This document shows, piece by piece, positions 1,044-1,119 of a DNA stretch of 64,000 nucleotides (the stretch's first letter is position 1; each line of letters opens with the position of its first letter). Origin of the DNA: a virus. Its lineage: Duplodnaviria > Heunggongvirae > Uroviricota > Caudoviricetes. Location of the stretch: IMG/VR virus record IMGVR_UViG_3300046820_001896, one strand, 5' to 3'. A program made the translations under genes and the position numbers. The notes beneath the pieces were generated by a model that saw only the letters and a program-made list of their open reading frames with translations, ran no database searches and was not told where the DNA came from.

Positions 1044-1119
1044 CCCAATTAAGCTAATCTAGTGAAAGCGCTGGTCTGAAAAGCCAGATAGTCTGGAGCG
1101 TAACCAGAAGTTGGGACCA
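1044..1119 (+). tRNA. aberrant tRNA-like gene, anticodon GAA (Phe) with non-canonical T loop AGCGTAA
   Basis: Acceptor cccaatt/agttggg (starts with C), anticodon stem ctggt/gccag with loop ctGAAaa, T arm tctgg-agcgtaa-ccaga (5 bp but no TTC motif), weak D arm, CCA encoded. Confidence 0.5.

Follow-up and report, generated by a model that had tools for sequence, protein, structure and literature searches.

The window analysed here is the whole 64,000-nt stretch of IMG/VR record IMGVR_UViG_3300046820_001896 (Caudoviricetes), to which all coordinates refer, and it derives from an uncultured marine T4-like myovirus. Its plus strand carries an array of transfer RNA (tRNA) genes at positions 53-2974, with CCA encoded in each gene. 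ARAGORN finds 12 tRNAs in this array and the Rfam tRNA model RF00005 finds 14; the two that ARAGORN misses, a tRNA-Phe at 1044-1119 and a tRNA-Val at 2901-2974, are the subject of this report. The 14-gene array is non-redundant, these two being its sole Phe and Val genes. A sequence-only reading of the window had singled them out as tRNA-shaped genes sharing the T loop AGCGTWA, and direct inspection agrees: the 11-mer GGAGCGTWACC occurs 2 times in the window, against 0.00 expected from 100 dinucleotide-preserving shuffles. The same reading gave all other T loops of the array as TTCGA(A/G/T)T, which was too narrow, as the genes at 150-224 and 604-679 have TTCAATC and TTCGAGC; TTCRANY still fits all twelve. 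What it missed is that both D loops have A-G in place of G18-G19, the partner of the T-loop change. Our analysis revealed that both loci are genuine tRNA genes, structurally constrained and conserved, with an alternative elbow in which A18:G55, A54:U58 and A60 would take over the corner contacts and G19:C56 is retained.

The Phe gene reads CCCAATT AA GCTA ATCTAGTGA AAGC G CTGGT CTGAAAA GCCAG ATAG TCTGG AGCGTAA CCAGA AGTTGGG A CCA (1044-1119) and the Val gene GCCTCGG TA GTTT AAAAGTA GAAC A CCCTC CTTACAA GTGGA AGAC GGCGG AGCGTTA CCGCA ACGAGGT A CCA (2901-2974). Covariance-model scoring, which the sequence-only reading had proposed, aligned both over the full length of RF00005 (model positions 1-71 of 71), with 41.0 bits for 1044-1116 and 29.9 bits for 2901-2971, so that both lie above the gathering score of 29, the Val gene marginally. 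The Phe gene begins with C1, as had been noted, and its first pair is C1-G72, compared with G1.U72 in the Val gene; A73 is present in both. All 20 of the 20 counted cloverleaf pairs of the Phe gene form, including a D stem of three pairs (G10-C26, C11-G25 and U12-A24, linear numbering), the fourth D-stem position being an A.A mismatch that was left out of the count. The earlier suspicion of weak D or anticodon stems therefore does not apply to the Phe gene; the Val copy contains three mismatches. The D loops read AUCUAGUGA (Phe) and AAAAGUA (Val); feature coordinates are collected in the table.

In a normal tRNA, G18 touches U55 or Psi55 and G19 pairs with C56, and the tRNA-specific corner consists of a UUCRA T loop into which G18 is inserted, with a U54.A58 closing pair. 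G18, U54 (T54) and Psi55 are commonly held to be invariant. From the conserved tertiary set both genes keep G19, C56 and a purine at 57, and both exchange G18, U54, U55 and A58 for A18, A54, G55 and U58; in addition the Phe gene alone has A8 where tRNAs have U8. The changed tertiary bases co-vary, and it is plausible that the contacts persist in a different form. Judged by their tertiary bases the two genes depart from tRNA, but they do so in a compensated fashion, and we therefore classed both as tRNA variants rather than placing them outside tRNA.

Features of the tRNA array and its surroundings in the window
Feature	Position	Strand	Basis or remark
tRNA-Phe(GAA), alternative elbow, CCA encoded	1044..1119	+	Rfam RF00005, 41.0 bits
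Phe D loop, A18-G19 replacing G18-G19	1061..1062	+	direct reading
Phe anticodon GAA, 7-nt loop CUGAAAA	1078..1080	+	U33 and A37 present
Phe T loop AGCGTAA (A54 G55 C56 G57 U58 A59 A60)	1097..1103	+	T arm TCTGG-AGCGTAA-CCAGA
tRNA-Val(UAC), alternative elbow, CCA encoded	2901..2974	+	Rfam RF00005, 29.9 bits
Val D loop, A18-G19	2917..2918	+	direct reading and alignment of Val orthologues (A2)
Val anticodon TAC, 7-nt loop CUUACAA	2933..2935	+	U33 and A37 present
Val T loop AGCGTTA	2952..2958	+	T arm GGCGG-AGCGTTA-CCGCA
12 tRNAs with canonical T loop (Met, Thr x2, Pro, Gly x2, Leu, Arg, Ile-UAU, Trp, Lys, His)	53..2891	+	small open reading frames between
Promoter-like TGTACA-N17-TATAAT, extended -10	1312..1340	+	consensus match alone; recurs at 4172-4200
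HNH endonuclease gene	3011..3568	+	PHROG, E = 5.8e-22; directly after Val gene
Terminator-like hairpin	3575-3598		terminator scan; after HNH gene

A scan of IMG/VR with the Phe T arm retrieved 19 contigs, 16 of which contain an orthologue of the Phe gene. Together with further orthologues these gave a gap-free alignment of 25 distinct Phe sequences (A1). In it 99.2% of stem cells pair, with both partners changed in 15 of the 20 pairs; none of 500 shuffles was as good, and sliding the 3' partners as a control brought pairing down to 32-43%. The D arm, G19, A54, C56, G57, U58, A59 and A60 are invariant and A18 and G55 are conserved in at least 90% of the sequences, as is G35 in the anticodon, where A36 and A37 (linear numbering) are invariant. 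The sole orthologue with U55, from Pseudomonas phage Boevelstad, has G18. Selection acts on the structure of the Phe family, and neither the loss of pairing nor the lack of structural conservation in relatives that would mark a pseudogene was found for the Phe gene. One IMG/VR contig of this alignment, L131, has the anticodon loop UCUAAGA in place of CUGAAGA, which suggests a shifted or altered anticodon (UAA or CUA reading) on a Phe-type body.

For the Val gene, a scan with the anticodon arm that left the elbow unconstrained retrieved 22 contigs, and 12 distinct orthologues were aligned (A2). Here 92.8% of cells pair, with both partners changed in 8 pairs; the UAC anticodon is invariant, and the 7-nt loop and a U.U mismatch in the anticodon stem occur in all. 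The sequence-only reading had considered an 8-nt anticodon loop for 2901, but this is the minimum-free-energy fold of the window copy only: the shifted register pairs 65% of cells with 0 compensatory changes, whereas the canonical register pairs 75% and has a compensatory C-G to U-A change at columns 28:40. Comparison by blastn identified homologous arrays with genes at matching positions in L156 (89-92% identity), L146, L280, L015, L108 and L004, and a BLAST search of GenBank phages with the Val gene gave no match. The window copy has the mismatches G7.A66, C27.A43 and G49.A65, which are absent from the orthologues except L145; the 108-kb contig behind L145 has the identical three mismatches plus a further G57A change. 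The search for AGCGTWA in related phages that the sequence-only reading had called for thus found the loop conserved at homologous loci, so that the loss of the loop in relatives, which that reading had named as grounds for giving up the idea, was not observed. Its view that the shared loop is not random decay and marks a conserved specialised class holds; orthologues keep the loop and show abundant compensatory changes in their stems.

The elbow changes are coordinated between the two loops. Close relatives of the Val gene occur in three states: D loop AATGGTA with T loop TTCGATT (L141, L147, L148 and others), AAAGGTA with ATCGTTA (L151, L153 and L028), and AAAAGTA or AATAGTA with AGCGTTA (the window, L083, L143, L146, L149, L154 and others). 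Within A2, column 17, which is position 18, is A in 8 of 8 rows with G55 and G in 4 of 4 rows with U55. The Phe gene behaves likewise, with CTGGTGA and ATCGTAA in Pseudomonas phage Boevelstad versus CTAGTGA and AGCGTAA in the window, and the family of the Ile(UAU) gene at 1207-1301 comprises orthologues with the canonical elbow or with the AGCGTTA elbow. We extended the comparison with a census finder that recognizes the cloverleaf by stem pairing and U33 alone, blind to both loop sequences, and that yielded about 2,700 tRNA-shaped genes. T-loop classes are given as positions 54, 55, 56. 58; because the loci had been fetched by T-loop pattern, the class frequencies are not population estimates. 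Among loci fetched without a D-loop constraint, the canonical class TTC.A has GG in the D loop in 928 of 934 genes and AGC.T has AG and no GG in 94 of 98. The same division is seen in classes that had never been selected for: AG without GG in TGC.A (28/34), GGC.G (14/14) and CGC.A (6/7), and GG in ATC.T (60/60) and ATC.A (27/27). Taking all viral loci together, 286 of 298 G55 genes have an AG D loop without GG (the other 12 have GG) and 1837 of 1845 U55 genes have GG (the other 8 have AG).

Further positions follow. A non-U base at 54 is accompanied by A60 (in every AGC.T gene) and U54 with a pyrimidine at 60, and across the variant class the 15:48 combination moves from A:U or G:C to A:C or A:A, while G52-C62, G53-C61, C56 and the purine at 57 are constant. 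The co-variation of 18 with 55 and of 54 with 60 is as direct an observation as the genes themselves, their conservation, the covariation of their stems and the spread of the class. This covariation speaks for the 18:55 tertiary contact and shows a second workable elbow design, and nature offers orthologue trios of one tRNA with a canonical, a half-converted and a fully converted elbow.

The class is broad. The viral pattern GGAGCGTWACC-N10-ACCA occurs in at least 120 contigs, with about 150 distinct tRNA-shaped genes among the matches listed; these include Phe, Ile, Met, Val, Lys, His, Tyr, Thr, Asn, Gly, Ala, Glu, Pro, Trp and other isotypes, and isotype hallmarks such as G-1 of tRNA-His and the long arm of tRNA-Tyr are present in viral variant genes. 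The strict pattern AGTA-N29-31-GGAGCGTTACC-N11-CCA has at least 120 loci in viral contigs and 116 loci, nearly all tRNA-shaped, in 596 Gb of genomes from 185,579 species. The cellular occurrences include stand-alone chromosomal genes, namely tRNA-Val(GAC) in single-cell genomes of Pelagibacteraceae (SAR11), where one 81-kb contig also carries 5S ribosomal RNA (rRNA), tRNA-Val(GAC) in gut Alphaproteobacteria and tRNA-His in Patescibacteria (CPR). Erysipelotrichaceae have a variant tRNA-Asp within small tRNA clusters, and many of the genome loci belong to long arrays of 7 to 17 tRNAs per 8 kb without rRNA, in Verrucomicrobia and Cytophagales. The verrucomicrobial arrays (L160-L275, for instance L175, L185, L192, L206, L262 and L270) consist nearly entirely of G55/A18 tRNAs, with varied closing pairs (UGCRA, AGCGU, GGCRG and CGCRA). 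We had considered the verrucomicrobial Ile and Ala matches as spacer tRNAs of rRNA operons and rejected this, since rRNA is absent there and each gene belongs to an array of 7 to 17 tRNAs. Long tRNA arrays are known to spread horizontally and to be associated with homing endonucleases (PMC8421152); the window array likewise ends in an HNH endonuclease gene. Viral loci with at least 6 tRNAs have a median of 22% non-canonical T loops, and wholly non-canonical viral arrays exist as well (13 of 13 in L066 and 14 of 14 in L311). In a 172-kb viral contig (L027), the gene for a DUF2828/DUF7788 protein (1603-2994, minus strand) lies within a few kb of clustered tRNAs with the variant elbow.

Cultured phages carry the intermediate form: the gene of Klebsiella phage KB57 is labelled 'tRNA-Pseudo-GAA' and that of Pseudomonas phage Boevelstad is unannotated. 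Xanthomonas phage X1 has a tRNA-Ile with AAAGGTA and ATCGTTA and a tRNA-Gln with ATCGATA. Aeromonas T4-like phages match a variant tRNA-Ile over the D and anticodon arms only, and the array of Aeromonas phage 44RR2.8t is wholly canonical. Within the fetched loci ARAGORN recalls 99% of canonical genes, 48% of the AGCGU type, 38% of the CGCRA type and 6% of the GGCRG type. Together with GenBank relatives that are labelled pseudogene or left unannotated, this amounts to an annotation blind spot, and given the low recall of variant genes, viral tRNA counts are probably too low. A description of the class was not found in the literature searched, loop sequences included, most subscription journals lying outside that search; the alternative-elbow class is apparently undescribed so far.

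As to the source phage, the baseplate wedge protein (gp6 type) shares 42% identity with its counterpart in Methylophilales phage Melnitz and 40% with the one in Pelagibacter phage HTVC008M, and the nearest cultured relatives infect SAR11 and OM43. A near-DNA search of GenBank phages with the array DNA gave matches to canonical tRNAs only, which indicates that there is no close cultured relative. Relatives were also sought through the protein of the open reading frame (ORF) 1366-1941, both among viral contigs and by exact look-up, which retrieved none, and they were retrieved instead by DNA patterns taken from the tRNAs. Within the array the Phe gene starts 1 nt past a GroES-like ORF (785-1042) and is followed 4 nt downstream by tRNA-Arg; the Val gene has tRNA-His 9 nt upstream and the HNH gene 36 nt downstream. 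The promoter-like site at 1312-1340 suggests a division of the array into two likely transcription units, with which the terminator-like hairpin behind the HNH gene would fit. It is part of a repeated element (1304-1340 and 4164-4200) consisting of AAAGTACTACATGTACA and, 17 nt further on, TG-n-TATAAT, which resembles a phage-specific promoter; one copy lies ahead of ORF 1366-1941 and the other past a 2OG-Fe oxygenase gene. Among genes for tRNA-handling enzymes (nucleases, ligases, modification enzymes and Schlafen domains), none relevant was found beside the window array and the fully variant arrays, where the encoded proteins comprise HNH endonuclease, 2OG-Fe oxygenase, GroES-like protein, metallophosphatase, methyltransferases and DUF2828.

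Several other features of the array deserve mention. The GroES-like co-chaperonin gene lies inside the array beside the Phe gene, and Xanthomonas phage X1 (L370, 2446-2694) is arranged likewise, with tRNA-Phe, then GroES, then tRNA-Leu. The tRNA at 1207-1301 (anticodon UAU) has a variable arm of 22-24 nt with the hairpin CCUC-UAGAU-GAGG, kept in related phage contigs with compensatory changes. Such an arm is unusual for Ile and normally marks Leu, Ser or Tyr; the putative assignment to Ile is that of ARAGORN. The 270-nt non-coding stretch at 1942-2210 contains short direct repeats, with three copies of CTGCTTATTGC and two of ATTGCTCTCGA, as well as inverted repeats; it has no Rfam match and folds no better than shuffles. 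The 57-nt spacer between tRNA-Trp and tRNA-Gly (2285-2341) can form a hairpin closed by GGCG...CGCC and ending in CCAA, with a folding z-score of -1.6; it could represent a tRNA remnant or serve as a signal for processing. Outside the array, a radical SAM protein gene (52524-53957; PHROG 1802, E = 1e-63) lies among phage structural genes.

We regard it as probable that both loci are ordinary decoding tRNAs with an alternative elbow, belonging to a T4-like marine phage. The Phe and Val genes would be transcribed together with their neighbours, their transcripts excised by host RNase P and 3' exonucleases with the CCA end already encoded, charged by host PheRS and ValRS, and used as elongator tRNAs on UUY and GUR codons. 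The G19:C56 pair is a flat outer pair that serves as a stacking platform for RNase P and the ribosome (PMC4810234), and since it is retained, processing and use by the ribosome should be unaffected. As the genes have neither U54 nor U55, their products should be unable to receive m5U54 and Psi55. The presence of the elbow in stand-alone chromosomal tRNA genes suggests that it works in translation.

The sequence-only reading had linked the two genes to tRNA-targeting defences. As decoys they find no support, yet the link might survive in another form, that of working tRNAs resistant to nucleases. CbCash, a Schlafen nuclease associated with CRISPR, cleaves a broad range of tRNAs at the UUC of the T loop; single mutations of U54 or U55 abolish its cleavage, and its authors left open whether phage tRNAs are targets (PMC13462974). 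Phage tRNAs are known to evade anticodon nucleases through loop mutations (PMC10264068). The prediction is that the variant tRNAs withstand nucleases reading the T-loop UUC; they would give the phage or the mobile array a tRNA supply that survives attack. The solutions found in the class are varied (A, G or C at 54 and G at 55), and all remove UU and keep C56 and the purine at 57; this independent loss of UU, together with the concentration in mobile contexts, is consistent with escape from a T-loop reader. That these tRNAs make up a distinct class which spans lineages and is carried mainly by phages and mobile arrays, and that the loss of U54 and U55, offset by A18 and A60, was selected for hiding them from immune or toxin nucleases that read the T-Psi-C loop (for instance Schlafen-type Cash) and for freeing them from TrmA and TruB, is a tentative proposal to which we give less than even weight. 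If it is true, mobile elements carry a nuclease-proof spare translation set and the supposedly invariant G18:Psi55 contact has a natural co-varying second form.

Several points weigh against these interpretations. Decoding is a function that we infer for all members of the class. The elbow is present in ordinary chromosomal genes and the Val gene of related phages occurs with the canonical elbow, so that the variant may owe nothing to nucleases and may be neutral or tuned to host enzymes. Arrays are mostly mosaic (median 22% non-canonical), and partial protection would be an odd defence. For the A54.U58 closing pair no structural precedent was found, and the elbow contacts proposed here are read from sequence. 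Finally, the window Val copy lies at the Rfam threshold (29.9 versus 29), has a folding z-score of -0.67 and contains three mismatches that its close orthologues lack. A neutral origin, in which a second workable corner arose by stepwise compensatory drift and spread with mobile arrays at no advantage to the phage, is a possibility, if not the one we would bet on: the intermediates ATC.A, ATC.T and AGC.T all occur naturally, the Val gene of close relatives has any of the three elbows, stand-alone cellular genes share the elbow, and arrays are mosaic. Nevertheless, the elbow is rare in cellular genomes (the 116 strict-pattern loci in 185,579 species) compared with at least 120 loci in the viral collection, and the several solutions that drop U54 and/or U55 and keep C56 and R57 look directional. 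Coiled-coil domains of ValRS and PheRS touch the elbow, and the elbow might instead be matched to host tRNAs or to synthetases of this type, the phage copies mirroring or deriving from hosts of this kind. The chromosomal tRNA-Val(GAC) of SAR11 and of gut Alphaproteobacteria has exactly AAAAGTA and AGCGTTA, the nearest cultured relatives of the window phage infect SAR11 and OM43, and Cytophagales arrays contain a tRNA-Phe with the same A8-A9 D arm. We nonetheless hold this adaptation to be unlikely, as Val(UAC) of the phage and Val(GAC) of SAR11 are alike in little but the elbow, the same gene of related phages has the canonical elbow, and nearly all isotypes occur in the class.

A further alternative is that the genes encode non-decoding tRNA-like RNAs, such as decoys for tRNA-targeting defences, primers or substrates of a phage enzyme, as the sequence-only reading had supposed. 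The canonical tertiary bases are indeed gone, ARAGORN and tRNAscan-type tools discard genes of this sort or label them as pseudogenes, and the non-proteinogenic tRNA-Gly of staphylococci shows that elbow changes can remove a tRNA from translation (PMC4574755). However, the 7-nt anticodon loop with U33 and A37, A73, the CCA end and the compensating stems lend this no support; the anticodon is fixed per family, the isotype repertoire is ordinary and includes tRNA-His with G-1 and tRNA-Tyr with the long arm, G19:C56 is retained in contrast to the staphylococcal tRNA-Gly, stand-alone chromosomal tRNA genes have the same elbow, and no gene for a tRNA-handling enzyme was found near the array. We consider this alternative highly improbable. 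Decay has to be weighed for the Val copy at 2901-2974 only, possibly a family member that is weakened or in decay. The three mismatches are missing from orthologues of about 92% identity, the Rfam score is borderline and the folding energy is like that of shuffles, and the near-twin L145 has acquired the extra G57A change; yet that second, independent 108-kb contig retains all three mismatches, the anticodon loop, D arm, elbow bases and CCA are all intact, the array has no other Val gene, and C.A and G.A mismatches at helix ends are tolerated in many tRNAs. On balance we find it rather doubtful that this copy is a pseudogene.

The tRNA genes with an alternative elbow form a large natural class that breaks the invariance of G18, U54 and Psi55 in a coordinated fashion. 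A 2021 review describes U54 as universally conserved except in eukaryotic initiators (PMC7912444). With this class one can test directly whether phage tRNAs evade immune nucleases that cleave the T loop (PMC13462974), and its elbows are potential parts for engineered orthogonal or nuclease-resistant tRNAs.

Compared with a canonical RF00005 elongator tRNA, the variants share the four-stem cloverleaf, the 7-nt anticodon loop with U33 and a purine at 37, G53-C61, G19:C56, the purine at 57, the discriminator followed by CCA and the tight packing in a phage tRNA array. They differ in having A18, A54, G55, U58 and A60 for G18, U54, U55, A58 and a pyrimidine at 60, in A8 for U8 in the Phe gene and in the shift of 15:48 across the class. 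The stable RNAs rnaC and rnaD of phage T4 were set aside as counterparts, since Rfam scores both window genes as simple cloverleaf tRNAs. The closest recorded counterparts are the Phe-gene relatives of Klebsiella phage KB57 and Pseudomonas phage Boevelstad, with the intermediate elbow GG and ATCGTWA, and the long mobile tRNA arrays ('L-arrays'), which the arrays of Verrucomicrobia and Cytophagales rich in G55 tRNAs resemble; the elbow variant and its covariation are not described in those phage records or in the L-array paper (PMC8421152). The tRNAs of phage T5 are likewise working phage tRNAs with a loop that departs from the host consensus at a nuclease-read site, but there it is the anticodon loop and the case is experimentally backed (PMC10264068), whereas here the T and D loops change together with second-site compensation, as read from the genes alone. 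The staphylococcal non-proteinogenic tRNA-Gly is a natural tRNA without the G18 and U55 consensus; in contrast to our genes it also loses G19 and C56, binds EF-Tu weakly and feeds cell-wall synthesis (PMC4574755). Both window genes keep G19 and C56, which are invariant in A1, and so lack the combined loss of G18, G19, U55 and C56 that characterizes non-proteinogenic tRNAs. In eukaryotic initiator tRNA, A60 goes along with A54. This tRNA-Met, with A54 and an A54-A58 pair (PMC7912444) of the Hoogsteen type, offers a precedent for A54 and resembles the variants in closing the T loop with a non-U base and retaining the L shape; it differs in keeping U55/Psi55, A58 and G18 and in being specific to initiation, the variants being bacterial-type elongators of many isotypes.

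The likeness extends beyond tRNA. T loops of riboswitches have the consensus YGNRA, with the UUCRA of tRNA as an exception and GGAAG in one rRNA T loop, and the base inserted between their positions 4 and 5 is nearly always an adenosine that faces position 2 (bioRxiv 10.1101/2022.12.26.521914). The variants have the same arrangement of a G at loop position 2 opposite an adenosine partner, as in A18:G55, where the adenosine would be physically inserted. The riboswitch and rRNA T loops do not lie in a tRNA elbow, and the A.U closing pair of AGCGU in the window genes falls outside their consensus, which calls for a Y-A pair between positions 1 and 5. The sister classes UGCRA and CGCRA do have this Y-A pair, and UGCRA, CGCRA and GGCRG match the YGNRA and GGAAG types. 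Thus, since G55 with an inserted A corresponds to the T-loop consensus found outside tRNA, the A18:G55 tRNAs appear to use the general grammar of T loops.

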